A stretch of 64,000 nt of DNA, taken from a virus. The notes below the pieces were generated by a model, which was not told where the DNA came from, ran no database searches, and saw only the letters and a program-made list of their open reading frames with translations. The stretch is from the IMG/VR virus record IMGVR_UViG_3300017971_000203, one strand, 5' to 3'. Position 1 is the first letter of the stretch, and each line of letters opens with the position of its first letter. This document shows positions 35,430-45,368 of this stretch, piece after piece. Position numbers and translations under genes: made by a program.

Positions 35430-35956
35430 GGCCGAGCATCCTTGGAAGCCTGCACTGAGCTCCACACGAACTCCGCCTTGGCCCGGTTACATCCTAGCCT
35501 CTGCATGCACACAGCGACGCTTTTTTCGCGGTCGTCCCCGATCATGTCGAGGAGCTCCCTCCGGGACAGTCCGAACTCCGCCATACCTTCCTGAATGGAC
35601 GCCTCACGATCCTCCAGTTGGGCGACCACTTTCTTCATGTGCTCGTCGACGGGGTTCGAAACGCGGGGCACCTCGAGCTCCTGGACGAGCTCCGAGAGCC
35701 ACTCATCGTCAGGCAAAGTGTCCCGATAGCCGGCGACGATCTCTTCGGTGCTGTAACCCGGAGGAACGGCGCACCAGAGCGCCACTTTGGCCCGACTGAC
35801 ATCCCTATCGGTCTCGAGCCGCCAGACCTCTCCGGTCCACTCGGCGTAGCACAGGGCGTAGTTCGTGATCACCAGGGATTCGTTCATCTTCACGTAGGCC
35901 AACAGGCGAAACCCCGCCAGGGGCCGGTCCTTGAAGGTCTTCCAGTTCAGCTGCAT
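35426..35956 (-). CDS. hypothetical protein
   Basis: ORF track, AGGAG RBS. Confidence 0.6.
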   Translation of the reverse strand: MQLNWKTFKDRPLAGFRLLAYVKMNESLVITNYALCYAEWTGEVWRLETDRDVSRAKVALWCAVPPGYSTEEIVAGYRDTLPDDEWLSELVQELEVPRVSNPVDEHMKKVVAQLEDREASIQEGMAEFGLSRRELLDMIGDDREKSVAVCMQRLGCNRAKAEFVWSSVQASKDARP

Positions 35957-36540
35957 TCTTCTGTCTCCTTTTCTTTCAGAGCCCTCTGAAGGGTGCCCCT
36001 CGGGATGCCTAGGAGCTTGCTCACTTTCCGTTGGGAGTAGCCCTTGCCAAAGAGCTCTTCCACGGCTTCTAGGTCGGTCTCTACCCTGGGACGCCCGACG
36101 TGTGTCCCGTTGGCCTTAGCGTGCTGCATACCGGCCTTGACCCGCTCCCTGATGGTGTCGCGTTCGAACTCGGCGAAGGCGGCCACGATGGTGAAGAACA
36201 TCTTTCCGGCGGCACTGGTCGTGTCGATGGTCTCCCGGAGGGACACGAAGTCGACGCTGTGCTCCTGGAAGGTCTCCAAGGCGGTCACGAGCTGCCGTGT
36301 GCTCCGGGCGAAGCGGTCGAACTTCCACACAAGGACTACGTCCAGCTTCCCGGTGATCGCATCCTTCATGAGCTTGTCGAGCGCCTTCCTGGAGGCCTTC
36401 GCACCGGAGACACCTTCGTCGACGTACTCCCTGTGCTTCCAGCCGTTGAGCTCCACGTACTTGCGGAGCTCCTCAAGCTGCATCTCGACGCTCTGATCCT
36501 TCGTGGACACCCTGGCGTAGATCCCGGCCCGCTTTTTCAT
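35947..36540 (-). CDS. small serine recombinase (resolvase/invertase family)
   Basis: YARVST.DQ, DEGVSG, VWKFDRFARS, IDTTSAAGKMFF..AEFER..IRER..AG, C-terminal HTH. Confidence 0.95.
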   Translation of the reverse strand: MKKRAGIYARVSTKDQSVEMQLEELRKYVELNGWKHREYVDEGVSGAKASRKALDKLMKDAITGKLDVVLVWKFDRFARSTRQLVTALETFQEHSVDFVSLRETIDTTSAAGKMFFTIVAAFAEFERDTIRERVKAGMQHAKANGTHVGRPRVETDLEAVEELFGKGYSQRKVSKLLGIPRGTLQRALKEKETEECS

Positions 36541-38000: not shown

Positions 38001-39206
38001 TCACCAGCTTCCATCGCGAACGGTCTCTGTGTCGACCACCTTCGGGGTGCCGCAACTGACGACCTCCTCGACCGGGGCGCTCGAATCGTCCTGTTGACCC
38101 TCTAAGCCCTTGTCCTTGTCCATCTCGGAGATGGTCTTCACCTTGCCCAGCGTCTCGGAGGCCTCCACGTCACCAAGGTCCTTGTCGTAGAGGTCGAACC
38201 AGGGGATCCCGGCCGCGAAGTACTCGTCCTTGCCGATGGGGCTCGGGGGCGGCGCTTCGCCGGTGATCTGCTGGTACATCTCCGCGTTCACCAGGTGGAC
38301 GAACACGCGCTGCTTGCAGTCCTGGTCCCAGACATGGACACCGTGGGGGTCGGGATAGACCTGCTGACGCATCGAGCCGCCCGCACCCATCCCCATCAGA
38401 GCCGCCTTCGGGGCGTTCTCCTGGAAGCTCCTCTTCGCGTGTCTCCGAATCACCGTGGGCTTGATGGCGTGCCTCATGAAGCCCTTGGCAACGCCTTCAG
38501 GGGCTCCCGCAGGCGCAGTGCTGCACAGGACCGCGCTCTCGAGGGTGTGCCCGCCGCTGGTCTTCACTTCCCCGGAGTAGCTCTCGAAGCCGTCGTCGCC
38601 GTCCCAGCCGAGGCTCTGCCCGGAGGCTCCGCCAGCAGTCGCAAAGCCGCCCTTCGCGACACCGCGGGAGCGCGTGCCTCTGCGCTTCTTGGGCTTCGGG
38701 AAGTGCTCTCGCTTGCCCGGGTAGACGGCCAGCTGCAGGCCGCCGTGCTTCTCCTCACCCGTGACCTGACCTTCCACGGTATAGCCCATGCCCAGGGGCA
38801 TCGCCACGAACTGGCTGACCTTGCCCTCTTCGGACTTGATGCCGTCGATCCACTTCTGGGGCGGAGCCACGAGGTAGTCCTGCTTGTCCTCGCTGAGACC
38901 GTCCTTCCAGGGCTCACCCGTGATGGCGTCGATCTTCCCGACGCCAACCTTCACGGCGCAGGGCGCGTGCGTGCGCAGTCCGAACTGGATCCACATCGCT
39001 TCGCGCTGGTGGAGCGGCAGGAACACGCCGCCCTTCTCCACCCAGCTGGGCGGCACCTTGTCCTTGTAGTCGTCGATGCGCTTGAGAGGGAAGCGTCCGA
39101 CCGAGCGTGGCAGGGGGTAGGTCTTTCCGTCCTCCGGGAGCCGGAAGGTTCTGTGGAAGACCACGATCAGGTTCTCTGTGTGCAGTTCATTGCCGATGAC
39201 TTTCAT
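38001..39206 (-). CDS. conserved hypothetical protein
   Basis: FHRTFRLPEDGKTYPLP..GRFPL..GGVFLPLHQREAMW..QFVAMPLGMGYTVEGQVTG; start overlaps the end of cassette 14. Confidence 0.8.
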   Translation of the reverse strand: MKVIGNELHTENLIVVFHRTFRLPEDGKTYPLPRSVGRFPLKRIDDYKDKVPPSWVEKGGVFLPLHQREAMWIQFGLRTHAPCAVKVGVGKIDAITGEPWKDGLSEDKQDYLVAPPQKWIDGIKSEEGKVSQFVAMPLGMGYTVEGQVTGEEKHGGLQLAVYPGKREHFPKPKKRRGTRSRGVAKGGFATAGGASGQSLGWDGDDGFESYSGEVKTSGGHTLESAVLCSTAPAGAPEGVAKGFMRHAIKPTVIRRHAKRSFQENAPKAALMGMGAGGSMRQQVYPDPHGVHVWDQDCKQRVFVHLVNAEMYQQITGEAPPPSPIGKDEYFAAGIPWFDLYDKDLGDVEASETLGKVKTISEMDKDKGLEGQQDDSSAPVEEVVSCGTPKVVDTETVRDGSW

Positions 39207-41640
39207 GTCGTCTCCTCGTAGTGGCGGGGCCTCCGCCCCTGCAAACTCGAAAGCTCAAGCGGGTTACGAAGTCGTCTGTGGCCGCAAAGGAAGAGCGGTG
39301 CCCCGAGTGGAACTGGATATCGAGACCGCCGCGAAAGGTGCTGCCCATGACGATTCTGTGTGTGTCGTCCCAGTAGTGGACCCGGATGACATCTTCAGGA
39401 TCCGGGGCCTCAGTGAACTCGAGAGCCGAGAAGCCCTGAGACAGCTCTCTCCAGCGGAACGTGCCCACATCACCCCCGTGCGATCCGGAAGCCGACATCG
39501 CTGCCTGCTCCGATCTGGTGTTCGTCGAGGCGTCCATCGTGCTCGAGGAAGTCTCGGTCGTGGGTGCGCACGTAGATGACATTGTTGTAGCAGAAGCCTT
39601 TGAGGAGGGACTTGTAGGAGGCGGTCCGGGGCCTCGGTCCGTTCCCGAGGGGCCAGGGGTTCGGGATCTCAGGCCAAAAGTGGCGGCGATCACCCGTAGC
39701 AGATCCGGAAGCCGACGATGTCGTGAGGACTCCCTGGGTAGAAGTTCTCGTCGTGGTAGTAGTTGGTCCGCTTGTGGAGAGTGCCGTCGCTTCTGTTCCG
39801 GTCCCACCAGGACCCGCCCCGGAGACTCCAAAAGGGCGGGGCTCACCCCCAGCAGATCCGGAAGCCCGTGAAGAAGATGCCACGTGGTCGGAGGCTCCCG
39901 TTCCGTCGTCCGAGATGGATCCGGAGAGCGTTCGTGAAGCGGGAGTAGCACTCGCCTCTTCGAACGCGGCGCCGAAAGGGCGCTTACCCTCTGCAAACCC
40001 GGAATCCGATGATGTAGAGCTTTCCTGTGATTCTCCATACCGTGCTGCATCTGCCGAGGGGTTGGAAGTCCTCTGAGAACCACGAGTTCCCTCGGCACCT
40101 GCTAAAGGGCCCCTACCCCCAGCAGATCCGGAAACCTTTGCCCCAGGAGTTGTCGGCGAAAGGTTCGGAGTCACGCTTCGCGACGCTGGCGACACCTCTG
40201 AAGAGGCTGCTGGCGAAGCCTCGCCCGGTCTTGGCGACAGGGAAGACGAAGTGTCGAAAGGGCGCTCAAGTACCTCCGTCGGATCGGACGATCCGGAATC
40301 CGAGCAGCTTGTCGGACATGGTTGTGAGCCCGGTTCCCCGGGCGTTGAGACGGAGGGAGACCGCGGAGCCGCCCCCTCGACAGATCGGGATCCAGACAAA
40401 GGGCGGCGCTCACCCCCAGCAGATCCGGAAGCCGGCGCTGGTCCAGTCCCCGAACTCACGCCCCTGTCTTCGGCGGGATGCGGAAGGCTGGAGTCGCATC
40501 CAGGACCCCGCTCGGACGACCCGAAAGGGACAGCGTCCTCCTCATCCTCGGCAGATCCGGAATCCGCGCCGCTGGTGGGCCCAGCTTCGTCGTGGGGAGA
40601 AGCACTTCCCAGACAGTCGCACGCGCGCGTAGACGGCGTCGAAACACCCTCCCCGGGGCTTGCCATACGGCTCCCGCCAGGGCTCCCCGGAAAAGGGTGA
40701 TCACCCCCAACAGATCCGGAAGCCGATATGATGGGCCCGGGTCCACATGGTGCGGGGGGTCTTTCTCCCGGGTCGCAAATTGTGGGGAGGGTACGGGTGT
40801 GCTGCATCGAGCCATGCGCCCCCTCGGAGGAAGCGGTCCCGAGGAAAGGGTCAGGAGTGTCCTCCTCGACAGATCCGGAAGCCCCAGCGGCCGGCTGCTC
40901 CTCTTCCGTATCCTCTGATGGAGAGCCGTCCGAGAGCGGGGGTAAAGAACTCGATGAGGTAGATCCCCCGCTCCCCGAGTCGAAAGGGCGATCAACCTCG
41001 GGCGATTCGAAAACCCTTACCAAATGAGGAGGAGGCGAAGGGCTCGGATGACCGCTTCGCGAGGCTGGCGACGCCCCTGTAGTAGACGCTGGCGAAGCCC
41101 CGCCCGACCTTGGCGAAGGGGCTCGGTCCTCGAGCGACCCGGTCGGCCTCTGTGGTCTCTCCCCAGGGACGAAAGGGCGGCGATTACCCCTGGGATCGGA
41201 CGATCCGGAAGCCGAGGAGCGTCCCCTTGTACTCGGGGTAGCTCCCAGGGCCTCGGTGGGCGATCCGGGCTCCGTGACCAGAGGAGAGTTCCCTGAACAA
41301 GCGTCCGCCTCGGAAGTTGGCACTTCGAAAGGGCGCCGTCTACCCCCGGCAGATCCTGAACCCTGGTCGAACGGTGTAGAAGACGTAGGTCTCGAGCTCG
41401 ATGTACCAGGACTTGAAGCCCTCGGGGTGTTGGTTCCCGAGCCACTCGCGGCGGGACAATCGGAGGGGTGGGTCGGGGTAGAAAGCGCCGCGGAGAGTGA
41501 GGGATCGCCGTGCCCAAAAGGGAGCTCAACCTCGGCAGAGCCGACGCCCTCGGGGTCCGGCTCGGGCGTCTGGGACGAGGCTGAGTCTGGAGAGGGGCAG
41601 GGGCCAGTCGAGAGAGGAAGTCGTTCGATCTCGAAATTGA
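39187..41640 (-). repeat. array of about 15 alternative C-terminal cassettes, 12 headed by CCCTTTN -1 slippery heptamers
   Basis: Heptamers at 41516-22, 41327-33, 41171-77, 40982-88, 40844-50, 40691-97, 40523-29, 40397-403, 40256-62, 40103-09, 39974-80 and 39830-36; each -1 frame ends GFR(I/V)xxG-like then stop. Confidence 0.92.
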
Positions 41641-42505
41641 CCTCCGCGGGCTCTCCGCGCTGGTGCCGTTTCTTCGACGTCACCTGCCTCATGGGAGGGT
41701 CCGGCTTCTGCTCCGCCATAGTGATGTCGGGCTTCGCGTGCTTCATGTGTTCGGCGTATTCGTCCCAGCACCACTCCCAGACGTTCCCCAGGCAGTCGTA
41801 GAGGCCCCACCTGTTCGGAGCCAGCTGCCGAACCGCATGAGTCCGACCATCTGAGTTCTGGTCAAACCAGGCGATCTCTTCCAGAGACGCCTCGCGCCAC
41901 TCGACTTCGCCACCACACCGGTCGCACACCCCAATCTCGTACCGCGCACCGTCGCTGCCCGCCCTGGCGGCGTACTCCCACTCCACCTCGGACGGGATCC
42001 GGAAGCCCGGGCCCTCCTTCCACAGGTAGCCCTGCTGGCGGTCCCCGATGTACGCGGGCGGTAAACCGCAGCGCTCCGAGAGCGCGTTGCAATACTCGAT
42101 GGCGTCGTACCAGCTCACGCACTCCACCGGGCGCTCGAGAGGATTGTCGCCCTGCTGGAAGTGGCTGGGGTTCTTCCCCATCACCGCTGCGTACTCGGAC
42201 TGCGTGACCGGCGCAGAAGCCATCCAGTACGTGTTCTCGATCGTCACCTCGATCTGATGCTCGTTCCGCCACCGACCATCTTCGTCCGGCGGACTGCCCA
42301 ACACGTCCGTACCGGCAGGGATCTCCACCAGCTCCGGGATCACAACGCCCTCCAGACGTGCGAGGTCAAGGCGCGCGAGCACGTCCCCTCCCCGGCTGCG
42401 AAGCCGCAGGAACTCCCGGAGAGCCGCCTCGTCATTGTCCACCGCCAGCTTCCCCAAGCGCTCGAGCTGCCGCACGTTGGTCGTTGATTCTCTCGTTGTC
42501 TCCAC
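39470..42505 (-). CDS. FGE-sulfatase (SUMF1/C-type lectin fold) protein with frameshift-selectable C-termini
   Basis: GTG start after CCAACGGAGGGG; PVTQSEY, NPSHF, PVECVSWYDA..YCN.LS, FRIPSEVEWEYAARAG, PNRWGLYDCLGNVWEWCWD; RGGSW..GFR ending absent until the cassettes. Confidence 0.92.
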   Translation of the reverse strand: METTRESTTNVRQLERLGKLAVDNDEAALREFLRLRSRGGDVLARLDLARLEGVVIPELVEIPAGTDVLGSPPDEDGRWRNEHQIEVTIENTYWMASAPVTQSEYAAVMGKNPSHFQQGDNPLERPVECVSWYDAIEYCNALSERCGLPPAYIGDRQQGYLWKEGPGFRIPSEVEWEYAARAGSDGARYEIGVCDRCGGEVEWREASLEEIAWFDQNSDGRTHAVRQLAPNRWGLYDCLGNVWEWCWDEYAEHMKHAKPDITMAEQKPDPPMRQVTSKKRHQRGEPAEVNFEIERLPLSTGPCPSPDSASSQTPEPDPEGVGSAEVELPFGHGDPSLSAALSTPTHPSDCPAASGSGTNTPRASSPGTSSSRPTSSTPFDQGSGSAGGRRRPFEVPTSEADACSGNSPLVTEPGSPTEALGATPSTRGRSSASGSSDPRGNRRPFVPGERPQRPTGSLEDRAPSPRSGGASPASTTGASPASRSGHPSPSPPPHLVRVFESPEVDRPFDSGSGGSTSSSSLPPLSDGSPSEDTEEEQPAAGASGSVEEDTPDPFLGTASSEGAHGSMQHTRTLPTICDPGERPPAPCGPGPIISASGSVGGDHPFPGSPGGSRMASPGEGVSTPSTRACDCLGSASPHDEAGPTSGADSGSAEDEEDAVPFGSSERGPGCDSSLPHPAEDRGVSSGTGPAPASGSAGGERRPLSGSRSVEGAAPRSPSVSTPGEPGSQPCPTSCSDSGSSDPTEVLERPFDTSSSLSPRPGEASPAASSEVSPASRSVTPNLSPTTPGAKVSGSAGGRGPLAGAEGTRGSQRTSNPSADAARYGESQESSTSSDSGFAEGKRPFGAAFEEASATPASRTLSGSISDDGTGASDHVASSSRASGSAGGEPRPFGVSGAGPGGTGTEATALSTSGPTTTTTRTSTQGVLTTSSASGSATGDRRHFWPEIPNPWPLGNGPRPRTASYKSLLKGFCYNNVIYVRTHDRDFLEHDGRLDEHQIGAGSDVGFRIARG

Positions 42506-42522
42506 CGTCCCCTCCGTTGGTC

Positions 42523-42822
42523 TCAGTTCTGAAGCCGCTGTCGCTGGCCCTTGAACCACAAGCCCGAGTCCTGCTCCTTTTGGTTGTCGTAGCTCTCCAC
42601 GTCCCAGTCGGCGTGGTAGAACGTGACCCGCACGAGGTTCTGCTCCTGGTGATCCAGGTTGAGCGGAAGGTCGCGCCACGAGATGCGGCACCCATACGGG
42701 TCCTTCGCCAGACGCTCATTGATAGCCACGATCACCGGACCCAGGTCCCGCTCCTTGTTCTTCTTCCACTGCTCACGCGCACTCACTGGCGTGATTGGCT
42801 CGACTTTCTGGTTGCTGCCCAT
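42523..42822 (-). CDS. hypothetical protein
   Basis: AAGGAG RBS. Confidence 0.65.
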   Translation of the reverse strand: MGSNQKVEPITPVSAREQWKKNKERDLGPVIVAINERLAKDPYGCRISWRDLPLNLDHQEQNLVRVTFYHADWDVESYDNQKEQDSGLWFKGQRQRLQN

Positions 42823-43062: not shown

Positions 43063-43469
43063 GTCATACCTCCCGTCACCCTGATGTCACACCAGAGTAG
43101 GACAACAGTCACATAACTATATCGGTCGTTCCCCGGTTGTCAAGGCCTATGTGTCGGGGAGCTCGTCTTCTCGGTAGAAACGCCACGTAGGCATCCCGTC
43201 CGGGTCGAGCGCATTCATTACAAGATAGGCCAACGCCGTCGCACGGCTGACCTTCTGAACCCCATGCACCACGCAGAGATACTTCGCCAGAAGATCCAGG
43301 CGATCAAGGACCTCCGGCAGCAAGCGAAAAGAGGTCGGCTTCGTATTGCTCATCAGCAAGACTCCTGTTAGGGTGAGTGAGCTACATCGGTGTAGTACAT
43401 ACAAAAACGTACCCGATCCGAAGCGGGAAGGGAAGGGGTATCACCGAAAGAAGGGGAGCTTGTAGGAAG

Positions 43470-45368
43470 ATGGCGACACAACGGCGGAAACTGTTCCCGG
43501 CCCTGATTGTCGATCTGACCCCCATCGAACTGGCTGCGAAGGGCCTGGTTTCGACGCATACGTTCGGCCAGCAGTTCGAGTTGCAACCAACCACTCTCAC
43601 CGCATCCGCGGGCGCGAACTATTTCCCCGCGGTTCGGACCACAGCCAAGTGCAGGGACAAGCGCTACGCCTACCCCAGGGATATGCGTTGCTACCTGGCC
43701 AGCCACAAGTTCCACACGAAAGAGGGGGAGGAACCTGTGGAACTGCCCCAGGCGCTCTTCAATGACCCCTACGACCCCCCGGGAGGGTTCAAGACCCGCC
43801 TGGACTGGAACCCGAGCTCCTGGCGCGTAGGCGACCCGTTCCCGAAATTCGACTCGGGACCTGACCTGGAAGGCTGCGAAGAACTCGAGGGGGACGAGCT
43901 CCTGAAGAAGGCGGTGGAACTTCTGGACTTCGGCTACTTCCTGAAGGCCACCGGCAAGCTCCTTGGACGGTCTCCCACAGTGCTGCGCGAACTCCTGATA
44001 GACGCCGGCGAATGGCCCCGGAAAGACCTCGGAGGCCAGAAGACTCGTAAACGGGGCGTCGTCGAAGAACCAGAGCCGGAAGAGCCGGAGCCCGAAGCAG
44101 CTGCCGAAGAGCCGCAACCGGAGCCAGAGCCGGAGCCGGAAGAGCCAGAAGCCGAGGTCGTGGATGAAGACGAAGACCTCGGAGAAGACTTCAGAGACCT
44201 AGGAGAGCCCGAGTTCAGCCCCGAAGGCATCCTGACCCTCTATTTCGAGAATCACCCCTTCCAGCTGACCGATAGCAATACACACCCCTTCGTCATCAAA
44301 GATGCTTGTGATTACCTGGAGATCCAGAACGCCCGCCAGGCTGCCGATCGGCTAGACAAGGATGATGTATGTTCAACATATATCATCGACTCGCTGGGCA
44401 GACCTCAGAAAACGCTCACCTGCAACTTCCCCGGCTACCTGGATCTCGTGATGGGGGCTCGGTCTTCGGACCGTGCACGCCCCTTCCAGCGGTGGGTAAC
44501 ACACACCGTTCTGCCCACTCTTGCCAAACTGGGGACGTACACTCTGGGACAAGAACAGGCCGCTCATGGCTCGCCGCTGCCGGGGGACCTCGAGCGCCTC
44601 TTCATGCAGCAGGCAGAGATCAACGTCCAACAATCCCGGATCAACGCCCAGCACGCCGAGACCATCTCCACCCTGGAAGAGCTGGTCGGGAAAATGATGG
44701 GGGGCATCGACGACTTCGTGAAGAGTGCTTCGAAGCGCTTCGAAGAGGTCGAAGAACGAACGGACCAAGCTGAAGAGCGTATTTCCAACCTGGAAGAAAC
44801 CCTGAAGAACGCCCTGGAAGACCCGTTCCTCGGAAACGACGCTGCGAACCAGGACAGGCACATCTTGAACGCGATCGCCAAGGCCAGGGGCATGGCCATC
44901 TTCTTCGGCACCAGCGACGGTGCCCGGATCGAAAGACAACTCCGAATTTGTCCCGAGGGCTCTCCCGAACACGACAAGCTGAAGTCCGAGAAGTGGAAAA
45001 AAGCCAGACCCCACATCAAAGGTGTATACACGGCCTTCTACCGCTACCTGCTCCGCCATTCCCGGAACCCTGTCATCGACGTGTGCGCCCGCAAACGCAG
45101 AGATGTGGAGCTCGTCAAGAAAGCCAACGGCGCCAAGGCCGCCAAACGGTTCGAAGGGATCGCTCGTCTGATCGACTACATCAGAGTCGAAGAGATGCCG
45201 GAAGCGTTGACCCTCCTGGTTCGCTCCTGTCTGGAAGAAGGGTTCTATCCCGTGCTGTTCCACGAACAACCCCGCATCCGGGAACTGATACGGGATATCC
45301 GGTACAAGAAAGAAAACAAACCGCGTGGTTCCAACGGAACGCCGCCGGAACCGCCCCCGAGCCCCTGA
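43470..45368 (+). CDS. BRO-N domain (antirepressor-like) protein with coiled coil
   Basis: PFVIKDACDYLEIQNARQAADRLDKDD..DSLGRPQ..ARPFQRWVTHTVLPTLAKLGTY. Confidence 0.85.
   Translation: MATQRRKLFPALIVDLTPIELAAKGLVSTHTFGQQFELQPTTLTASAGANYFPAVRTTAKCRDKRYAYPRDMRCYLASHKFHTKEGEEPVELPQALFNDPYDPPGGFKTRLDWNPSSWRVGDPFPKFDSGPDLEGCEELEGDELLKKAVELLDFGYFLKATGKLLGRSPTVLRELLIDAGEWPRKDLGGQKTRKRGVVEEPEPEEPEPEAAAEEPQPEPEPEPEEPEAEVVDEDEDLGEDFRDLGEPEFSPEGILTLYFENHPFQLTDSNTHPFVIKDACDYLEIQNARQAADRLDKDDVCSTYIIDSLGRPQKTLTCNFPGYLDLVMGARSSDRARPFQRWVTHTVLPTLAKLGTYTLGQEQAAHGSPLPGDLERLFMQQAEINVQQSRINAQHAETISTLEELVGKMMGGIDDFVKSASKRFEEVEERTDQAEERISNLEETLKNALEDPFLGNDAANQDRHILNAIAKARGMAIFFGTSDGARIERQLRICPEGSPEHDKLKSEKWKKARPHIKGVYTAFYRYLLRHSRNPVIDVCARKRRDVELVKKANGAKAAKRFEGIARLIDYIRVEEMPEALTLLVRSCLEEGFYPVLFHEQPRIRELIRDIRYKKENKPRGSNGTPPEPPPSP

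Follow-up and report, generated by a model that had tools for sequence, protein, structure and literature searches.

Serial -1 programmed ribosomal frameshifting on a single messenger RNA (mRNA), stimulated by Shine-Dalgarno (SD)-like tracts, is probably the best explanation for the organization of a gene at positions 39470-42691 (minus strand) of a 64,000-nucleotide stretch of phage DNA. This stretch (hereafter, the window) is part of the IMG/VR phage record IMGVR_UViG_3300017971_000203, which is 128,887 bp long, approximately 69% complete and 61% G + C. In the proposed mechanism, ribosomes would translate the N-terminal four fifths of a lectin-fold domain in frame 0 and then enter a stop-free stretch rich in Ser, Pro, Gly, Thr and Ala. 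At each of 12 C_CCU_UUN heptamers with an SD-like tract 7-17 nucleotides upstream, a fraction of the ribosomes would slip into the -1 frame, read one cassette of 39-61 amino acids (PF...RGG...hypervariable core...GFRIxRG) and stop 0-12 nucleotides before the next heptamer. Unslipped ribosomes would continue to the next site, and those that never shift would end at 39470 with a degenerate in-frame unit, C13. Each product would consist of the shared scaffold closed by a different C-terminal module, giving approximately 13 proteins per mRNA, and the stretch encoded in frame 0 would bulge out of the fold at a surface loop that varies naturally. The putative role is to provide a repertoire of binding specificities. 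That slipping occurs, in what ratios the isoforms arise, how products with long loops fold and what they do for the phage are points that we infer.

The gene and its recognizable domain are as follows.
39470-42691, minus strand: 0-frame open reading frame (ORF) of 1073 amino acids from GTG at 42691 (1029 amino acids from GTG at 42559 according to gene callers), comprising a short N-terminal helical region, the N-terminal part of a formylglycine-generating enzyme (FGE)/C-type-lectin-fold domain (the N-part), a linker of approximately 750 codons running through all cassettes, and the end GFRIARG-stop.
41723-42337, minus strand: N-terminal four fifths of the FGE-sulfatase/C-type-lectin-fold domain, matching positions 3-204 of the 255-position PF03781 profile.

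The N-part matches PF03781 strongly (E value 2.6e-37, 129 bits), with the same result in the whole-genome profile search, and it breaks off at profile position 204 of 255, just past the motif WEWCWDEY, with the RVxRGGSW...GFR end missing. This C-terminal segment is absent from frame 0 beside the N-part, and its counterpart is encoded in the -1 frame, so that a complete domain would require the proposed frameshift. The closest solved structure by sequence is Treponema TvpA (2Y3C; E value 5.6e-27), which is a variable protein of a diversity-generating retroelement (DGR), while true formylglycine-generating enzymes match at approximately 1e-9. SUMF1-type FGE catalysis depends on a conserved cysteine pair in the C-terminal part. 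Across 30 cassettes only P1, F2, R9 and R45 are invariant, and the catalytic cysteine pair is not among these residues. Because the cassettes lack an invariant cysteine pair and TvpA ranks far ahead of the true FGEs, the protein appears to be a binding scaffold and not an FGE enzyme.

After the N-part, the -1 frame contains 12 tandem stop-terminated cassettes of 39-61 amino acids. They share a framework composed of a PF start, an R-G(G) motif, a core variable in both length and sequence, and a GFR(I/V)x(R/W/Y)G-stop end; in C2, C4 and C8, a short extension follows the GFR block before the stop. The array, including its degenerate margins, is laid out as follows.
41526-41678, minus strand: C0, a degenerate -1-frame cassette (RRARGG...GRRLCRG-stop) between the N-part and site 1, with no slippery heptamer and a weak profile match (E value 0.0035).
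41340-41522, minus strand: site 1 (CCCTTTT) and cassette C1, 60 amino acids, stop codon TAG.
41184-41333, minus strand: site 2 (CCCTTTC) and cassette C2, 49 amino acids, stop codon TAA, gain of 17 bits in the hidden Markov model (HMM) test described below.
40992-41177, minus strand: site 3 (CCCTTTC) and cassette C3, 61 amino acids, paralogue of C9.
40851-40988, minus strand: site 4 (CCCTTTC) and cassette C4, 45 amino acids.
40701-40850, minus strand: site 5 (CCCTTTC) and cassette C5, 49 amino acids, the best match to an FGE C-terminus, gain of 22.8 bits, used for docking.
40542-40697, minus strand: site 6 (CCCTTTT) and cassette C6, 51 amino acids.
40410-40529, minus strand: site 7 (CCCTTTC) and cassette C7, 39 amino acids, with the motif RVVRAGSW...GFRICWG.
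40266-40403, minus strand: site 8 (CCCTTTG) and cassette C8, 45 amino acids, gain of 18.5 bits.
40113-40262, minus strand: site 9 (CCCTTTC) and cassette C9, 49 amino acids, paralogue of C3.
39984-40109, minus strand: site 10 (CCCTTTA) and cassette C10, 41 amino acids.
39843-39980, minus strand: site 11 (CCCTTTC) and cassette C11, 45 amino acids.
39690-39836, minus strand: site 12 (CCCTTTT) and cassette C12, 48 amino acids.
39470-39685, minus strand: C13, the terminal unit, in frame 0, which starts with CCACTTTT where CCCTTTT would be expected and keeps only the GFRIARG-stop end.
39187-39498, minus strand: third-frame ORF of 103 amino acids from ATG at 39498, with GGAG 9 nucleotides upstream, which overlaps the gene end and itself ends in a cassette-like unit, C14 (LSFRVCRGG...).

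A preliminary description of this DNA, made from the letters alone, had already placed cassettes C1 to C12 correctly to within a codon, and its remark that no cassette begins on a start codon also holds, as neither ATG, GTG nor TTG is found within the first 10 codons of any of the 12. Its estimate of about 14 to 15 alternative termini is generous, since 12 cassettes are led by a heptamer, C0 has none, and C13 and C14 are degenerate. C0 is probably inaccessible to ribosomes because it lacks a heptamer. C13 lies in frame 0 because of one extra base in CCACTTTT, and unshifted ribosomes therefore would end on GFRIARG-stop. Only the last 12 residues of C14 align to the cassette profile. The third frame is open for 303 codons at 39187-40098, and the contig of a related protein, P0004, has a 105-amino-acid ORF at the position matching the 103-amino-acid ORF of the window. 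The cassette terminators include TGA, TAG and TAA, and as all three end cassettes, stop-codon reassignment was rejected. Transcriptional slippage or phase variation was likewise rejected, the C3T3 run being, to our knowledge, too short. Tandem Repeats Finder reported no repeats in the array, the units being too diverged. The sole recognizable recent duplication is the C3/C9 pair (40983-41121 and 40104-40242), with 72% nucleotide identity over 139 nucleotides.

The slippery sites are strictly phased. All 12 CCCTTT occurrences in the gene (positions 41522, 41333, 41177, 40988, 40850, 40697, 40529, 40403, 40262, 40109, 39980 and 39836) stand in the C_CCT_TTN phase, which is the X_XXY_YYZ phase of frame 0, in agreement with the preliminary description. 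Over the entire 128,887 bp and both strands there are 51 CCCTTT, or approximately 0.2 per kb per strand, and the array is enriched approximately 35-fold. In the -1 frame, CCC TTT encodes Pro-Phe, for which the genome uses TTT in 15% of Phe codons and CCC in 32% of Pro codons; the occurrence of CCC TTT in 12 of 12 cassettes despite this low usage (approximately 1.6e-16) therefore argues that the hexamer is conserved as nucleotides and not as residues. In Escherichia coli, the efficient -1 motifs include the H_HH.U_UU.Y heptamers, to which C_CC.U_UU.C and C_CC.U_UU.U belong (PMC4066793). The final heptamer base is C or T at 10 of the 12 window sites and at all 19 sites of L006, a related 10.9-kb metagenome contig.

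Each slippery site is also preceded by an SD-like tract. Counted by a published criterion, 6-17 nucleotides upstream of the heptamer, such tracts are present at 12 of 12 window sites, compared with 33% of array positions (P = 1.6e-6), and at 14 of 19 L006 sites, compared with 26% of array positions (P = 2.3e-5). Predicted anti-SD pairing has a sharp maximum at 8-mers whose first base lies at -16 to -11. The tract overlaps the last codons of the preceding cassette, and codon choice is skewed at exactly these codons: in L006, 19 of 27 Arg codons in the last four cassette residues are AGG or AGA, compared with 13 of 142 elsewhere (P = 6e-11), and in the window the final Gly of the cassette is GGG in 8 of 10 cases, compared with 33% genome-wide. 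These biases suggest that the SD-like tract is not a by-product of the protein sequence and is kept by codon choice (the rare AGR codons, and GGG). The phage's own genes have SD-type ribosome-binding sites. Stimulators of this type, located 5' of the slippery site, are a main feature of dnaX frameshifting and are estimated to occur in 56% of the insertion sequence (IS) elements that use frameshifting (PMC5009743).

The preliminary description had also claimed that frame 0 stays open throughout the array, and this was borne out over approximately 750 codons past the N-part, in which 83% of residues are S, P, G, T, A, E, D or R and 12% are hydrophobic. The expected number of stops was obtained by keeping the cassette amino acids and redrawing synonymous codons from genome usage in 2000 resamples. 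In the window, no frame-0 stop was observed, compared with 6.5 +/- 2.3 expected, and 1 of 2000 resamples was without a stop; in L006, none was observed, compared with 13.1 +/- 3.1 expected, and no resample of 2000 was without a stop. The wobble position of the cassettes is 47-49% C, compared with 37% in the N-part; with C at the wobble position, the middle base of the overlapping frame-0 codon is C, so that stops are excluded and Ser, Pro, Thr and Ala result. Judged from these resamples, the open 0 frame appears to be maintained by selection. The distance from a cassette stop to the next heptamer is 0, 3, 6 or 12 nucleotides in the window and 0, 3 or 6 nucleotides in L006. The spacers thus vary by whole codons only, in DNA without a coding role in the -1 frame, and this would fit translation of another frame straight through the junctions.

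Several lines of evidence suggest that the cassettes are themselves coding and complete the domain. Among the differing codons of C3 and C9, the ratio of synonymous to non-synonymous changes is 13/12 in the -1 frame, 5/22 in frame 0 and 1/23 in the third frame, which points to purifying selection on the -1 frame in this pair; in addition, the -1 frame has the highest third-position G + C in the array. Against Pfam, C5 alone matches positions 214-253 of the PF03781 profile (E value 0.0015), and the other 11 of the 12 single cassettes, being too short, give no FGE match. We built an FGE profile from 69 complete domains and scored the N-part joined directly to each cassette. The joins gained 2-23 bits, and at least 7.8 bits for 9 of the 12 cassettes, compared with 0-4 bits for shuffled cassettes and 0.4-5.5 bits for frame-0 peptides; C13, C14 and the tail of the P0004 protein gave no gain. 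The earlier claim that the cassettes supply the missing FGE C-terminus, and the profile test proposed with it, thus find clear support for nine cassettes and weak support for the other three.

Structure prediction gave a similar picture for the best-matching cassette. The predicted complex of the N-part with C5 scored 0.88 and the best of three controls 0.21; the mark used for this score was reached by 58 of 80 solved complexes and by 2 of 110 mismatched pairs, counts that are rough as our own alignments were used. Contact agreement between runs was at least 96%, the predicted local distance difference test value of the partner was at least 83, and the GFRIC strand of the cassette packs against VWEW of the N-part. 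Because the N-part and the cassette are halves of a well-known fold, this result may reflect likeness to solved FGE structures. The docking model thus suggests that the cassette fits the missing part of the fold, and says nothing on covalent joining to the N-part.

Two diverged relatives of the array gene were found. The P0004 protein (756 amino acids, from a Logan assembly) has an N-part 63% identical to that of the window, which stops at the same WEWCWDEY; it is followed, at the protein level, by a Ser-rich frame punctuated by DPF, HPF and RPF, with the first PF 11 residues past the motif. The N-part of L006 is 68% identical, and more than 1,100 codons follow WEWCWDEY in frame 0 without a stop, up to the contig end. 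All 19 CCCTTT of L006 are in phase, and approximately 20 cassettes in its -1 frame show the framework PF...RG...GFRLxR(G/R)-stop. The preliminary description had proposed a search of related phages for FGE genes with phased CCCTTT arrays; the design recurs at the nucleotide level in L006 and as PF punctuation of the protein in P0004. The cassette cores of the window and of L006 are unrelated to each other and, except for C3/C9, also to those of their neighbors. Comparison of the two loci suggests conservation of the framework and signals alongside free divergence of the cores. The flanking genes of the L006 array have no homology to those of the window. By comparison, phased heptamers are absent from 26 other FGE genes that contain WEWCWDEY, all of which run on in frame to an ordinary end.

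Two further features of L006 were observed. Nested within the open 0 frame, the -1 frame also encodes a 191-amino-acid endonuclease (L006:2820-3392, minus strand; phrog_2340, E value 5.5e-21, with HNH-like CxxC...HH motifs). This gene is located downstream of the N-part and ahead of the first cassette, its stop codon preceding the first heptamer by 3 nucleotides. Near minus-strand index 10660 (plus strand approximately 243), a cassette reading HGPYFSIRG...GLRIVRC-stop has lost CCCTTT and kept the framework, and it may be a recently silenced unit.

Scans of viral contigs for relatives or junction patterns yielded no further arrays, and a scan of reference prokaryote genomes found ordinary FGE genes only. 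Among 1.84 billion representative proteins, a search dominated by multi-domain FGE matches, only the window's protein and P0004 fell into the family, and a search for shorter relatives of the array protein found none.

With respect to its surroundings in the window, the array gene product has no recognizable virion or secretion features, and its neighbors are an anti-repressor-like gene and small genes of unknown function. Capsid or protease fragments were looked for inside the cassettes, and no frame of either array gave a PHROG match. No terminator-like site was found inside the array or anywhere in 37.5-43.5 kb, where 3.3 would be expected. The principal features are as follows.
43116-43143, minus strand: predicted sigma-70-like promoter, TTGACA-16-TATAGT, with 11 of 12 matches, located 5' of two small ORFs (74 and 99 amino acids) that precede the array gene.
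43377-45368, plus strand: gene for a 663-amino-acid protein with a Bro-N/anti-repressor (Ant)-like central domain, divergent from the array operon.
35947-36540, minus strand: gene for a small serine recombinase (197 amino acids) with a Resolvase domain (E value 3.3e-47) and a C-terminal helix-turn-helix, 3 kb downstream of the array and on the same strand.

Serial frameshifting is preferred because it explains together the truncated domain, the phased heptamers, the SD-like tracts and the placement of the stops, and because it also explains the open 0 frame, the whole-codon spacers, the selection on two frames and the in-frame last unit. As proposed in the preliminary description, the mechanism is supported, and every prediction of it that could be tested at the sequence level held. 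However, several observations weigh against it. HMM support is weak for 3 of the 12 window cassettes and for most L006 cassettes, and in C13, the default end, only the last 12 residues fit the cassette profile. It would be unusual for a single domain to contain disordered loops of up to approximately 620 amino acids, as late products would. The SD-like tracts share bases with the cassette ends and sit at an ordinary ribosome-binding-site distance from the CCC codon, so they may serve another role. The RNA folding energy just 3' of the heptamers is on average only approximately 2 kcal/mol beyond the array average, and the search for a strong conserved 3' structure behind the heptamers found none, only this slight excess. 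Finally, the third frame is also depleted in stops (4 compared with 16 expected), for which the C-rich wobble position may account.

An alternative hypothesis is that switching takes place at the DNA level, with deletion, gene conversion or a site-specific recombinase bringing silent C-terminal cassettes into position after the N-part. The locus would then resemble the vls or pilS cassettes or a shufflon, perhaps operated by the resolvase/invertase-type recombinase gene 3 kb downstream. Approximately 30 nucleotides conserved at every junction could act as homology, this recombinase gene lies on the same strand as the array, and the L006 locus contains an endonuclease gene. However, no inverted sites matching the serine recombinase were found near the array; the cassettes are all direct, and the inverted repeats present are weak (72-88% complementary), scattered and not convincing. 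Even after junction-to-junction recombination, no cassette would be in frame with the N-part, and the open 0 frame, the multiple-of-three spacers, the slippery phase and the SD-like codon choice would go unexplained. In addition, the locus was recovered from a second, independent sample in an identical arrangement, with 100% identity over 9,090 bp, and the genes called beside P0004 have no resolvase Pfam match on record. Switching at the DNA level is thus unlikely.

The array could also be a fossil, that is, the remnants of tandem duplications of a 3' end, from which only the 0-frame protein or none at all is made and in which the sites have no function. The clear degeneracy of C0, C13 and C14 and the poor FGE-profile scores of several cassettes would agree with such decay. 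On the other hand, the PF/RG/GFRxxR framework, the stops, the heptamers and their phase are kept in approximately 30 cassettes of two lineages with unrelated cores, and the C3/C9 comparison indicates purifying selection on the -1 frame. The apparent nucleotide-level selection on CCCTTT and on the SD-like tails is equally difficult to reconcile with loss of function, and the N-part alone is an incomplete fold. We therefore regard a fossil origin, too, as improbable.

A third possibility is split-protein complementation in trans: each cassette would be translated alone, either with the SD-like tract serving as its ribosome-binding site or through termination-reinitiation, and would then complete the N-part. 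The distance from the end of the SD-like tract to CCC is 6-16 nucleotides, mostly 6-9, which overlaps the start-codon spacing of the phage; the complex prediction implies that a free cassette could dock; and the 103-amino-acid ORF carrying C14 has its own ATG and GGAG. Nevertheless, no ATG, GTG or TTG is present at or near any cassette start, and neither the open 0 frame nor the constant frame of units and spacers is explained, which makes separate peptides very unlikely.

The least probable of the alternatives, and to us barely credible, is joining at the RNA level, in which alternative 3' splicing (e.g., by a group I intron) or long-range translational bypassing would connect the N-part with one cassette: the conserved CCCTTT could serve for pairing or landing and the L006 endonuclease ORF does lie between the N-part and the first cassette, but no Rfam family, introns included, matched at E <= 1, the window has no endonuclease at the corresponding place, neither mechanism requires an open 0 frame or phased heptamers, and we know of no translational bypassing across hundreds to thousands of nucleotides.

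Returning to serial frameshifting, we lean towards viewing the array as a generator of protein repertoires that operates at translation, in which 12-20 serial sites would split one mRNA into a fixed set of proteins and neither recombination nor reverse transcriptase would be needed. No reverse transcriptase was found, PF00078 being unmatched in the 128,887-bp record, which is approximately 69% complete. On balance, such a system would parallel DGRs or mutually exclusive splicing in a hard-wired form, and several phage lineages would appear to have it. The efficiency of each site would then plausibly determine, and possibly tune, the isoform ratios.

If true, this would be the first described serial use of programmed frameshifting to pick one of many interchangeable protein modules, and it would constitute a new class of protein-diversity system beside DGRs, shufflons and silent-cassette conversion. 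As it would act on the lectin-fold variable region that DGRs diversify, it suggests that phages have repeatedly come under strong pressure to diversify this surface. The 12-19 SD-plus-heptamer sites in different contexts on one mRNA would also provide a natural test bed for the determinants of frameshift efficiency. Furthermore, gene callers report one long low-complexity protein and miss every cassette, which renders such arrays invisible in current databases.

Comparison with known systems places the array close to several of them. E. coli dnaX and the IS3/IS911-type elements likewise combine an X_XXY_YYZ heptamer with an SD-like tract 6-17 nucleotides upstream and produce an altered C-terminus (PMC4066793, PMC5009743). 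However, those genes have one site and two products each, whereas the window has 12 sites in series and L006 has 19 or more; moreover, each site of the array opens a different self-terminated module, while frame 0 is kept open as a long linker. Among phages, the lambda G/GT tail chaperone and the T7 10A/10B capsid proteins are -1-shift products with a common N-terminus and different C-termini. These are pairs of products in a fixed ratio with a structural role, whereas the array would provide approximately 13 interchangeable, putatively ligand-binding ends on a protein that does not look structural.

With DGR variable proteins the array shares a conserved framework around a hypervariable core. 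DGR variable regions comprise 40-45 amino acids at the extreme C-terminus (PMC6328139), and in TvpA (2Y3C), Thermus TaqVP (5VF4) and Mtd of the Bordetella phage, the position and approximate size of the variable region match the cassettes. No template repeat/variable region pair was found in the array, the only similar cassettes being C3 and C9. The two systems differ in that DGR variants are written by mutagenic retrohoming, whereas in the array the genome already contains every variant as a fixed sequence, and the choice among them would be made during translation.

Shufflons and invertible tail-fibre segments likewise join a constant N-terminal part to alternative C-terminal segments, and the array, too, lies near a small serine recombinase gene. 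In R64 (Rci/PilV), Mu (Gin) and P1 (Cin), recombination sites are inverted, segments occur in both orientations and one variant is present per genome at a time. By contrast, the units of the array are all direct repeats, out of frame and equipped with slippery sites, and the recombinase gene is 3 kb away. The vls system of Borrelia and the pilS loci of Neisseria consist of promoterless partial gene copies in tandem, from which gene conversion transfers sequence into a complete expression site. The array resembles them in its tandem partial copies with conserved flanks and variable cores, but it has no resident in-frame cassette beside the N-part, and each of its cassettes has its own stop and entry signal. 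A full-text literature search found no published description of such a serial frameshift array. Taken together, the parts of the array are canonical bacterial -1 frameshift signals, and their arrangement in series with hypervariable modules is what appears to be new.

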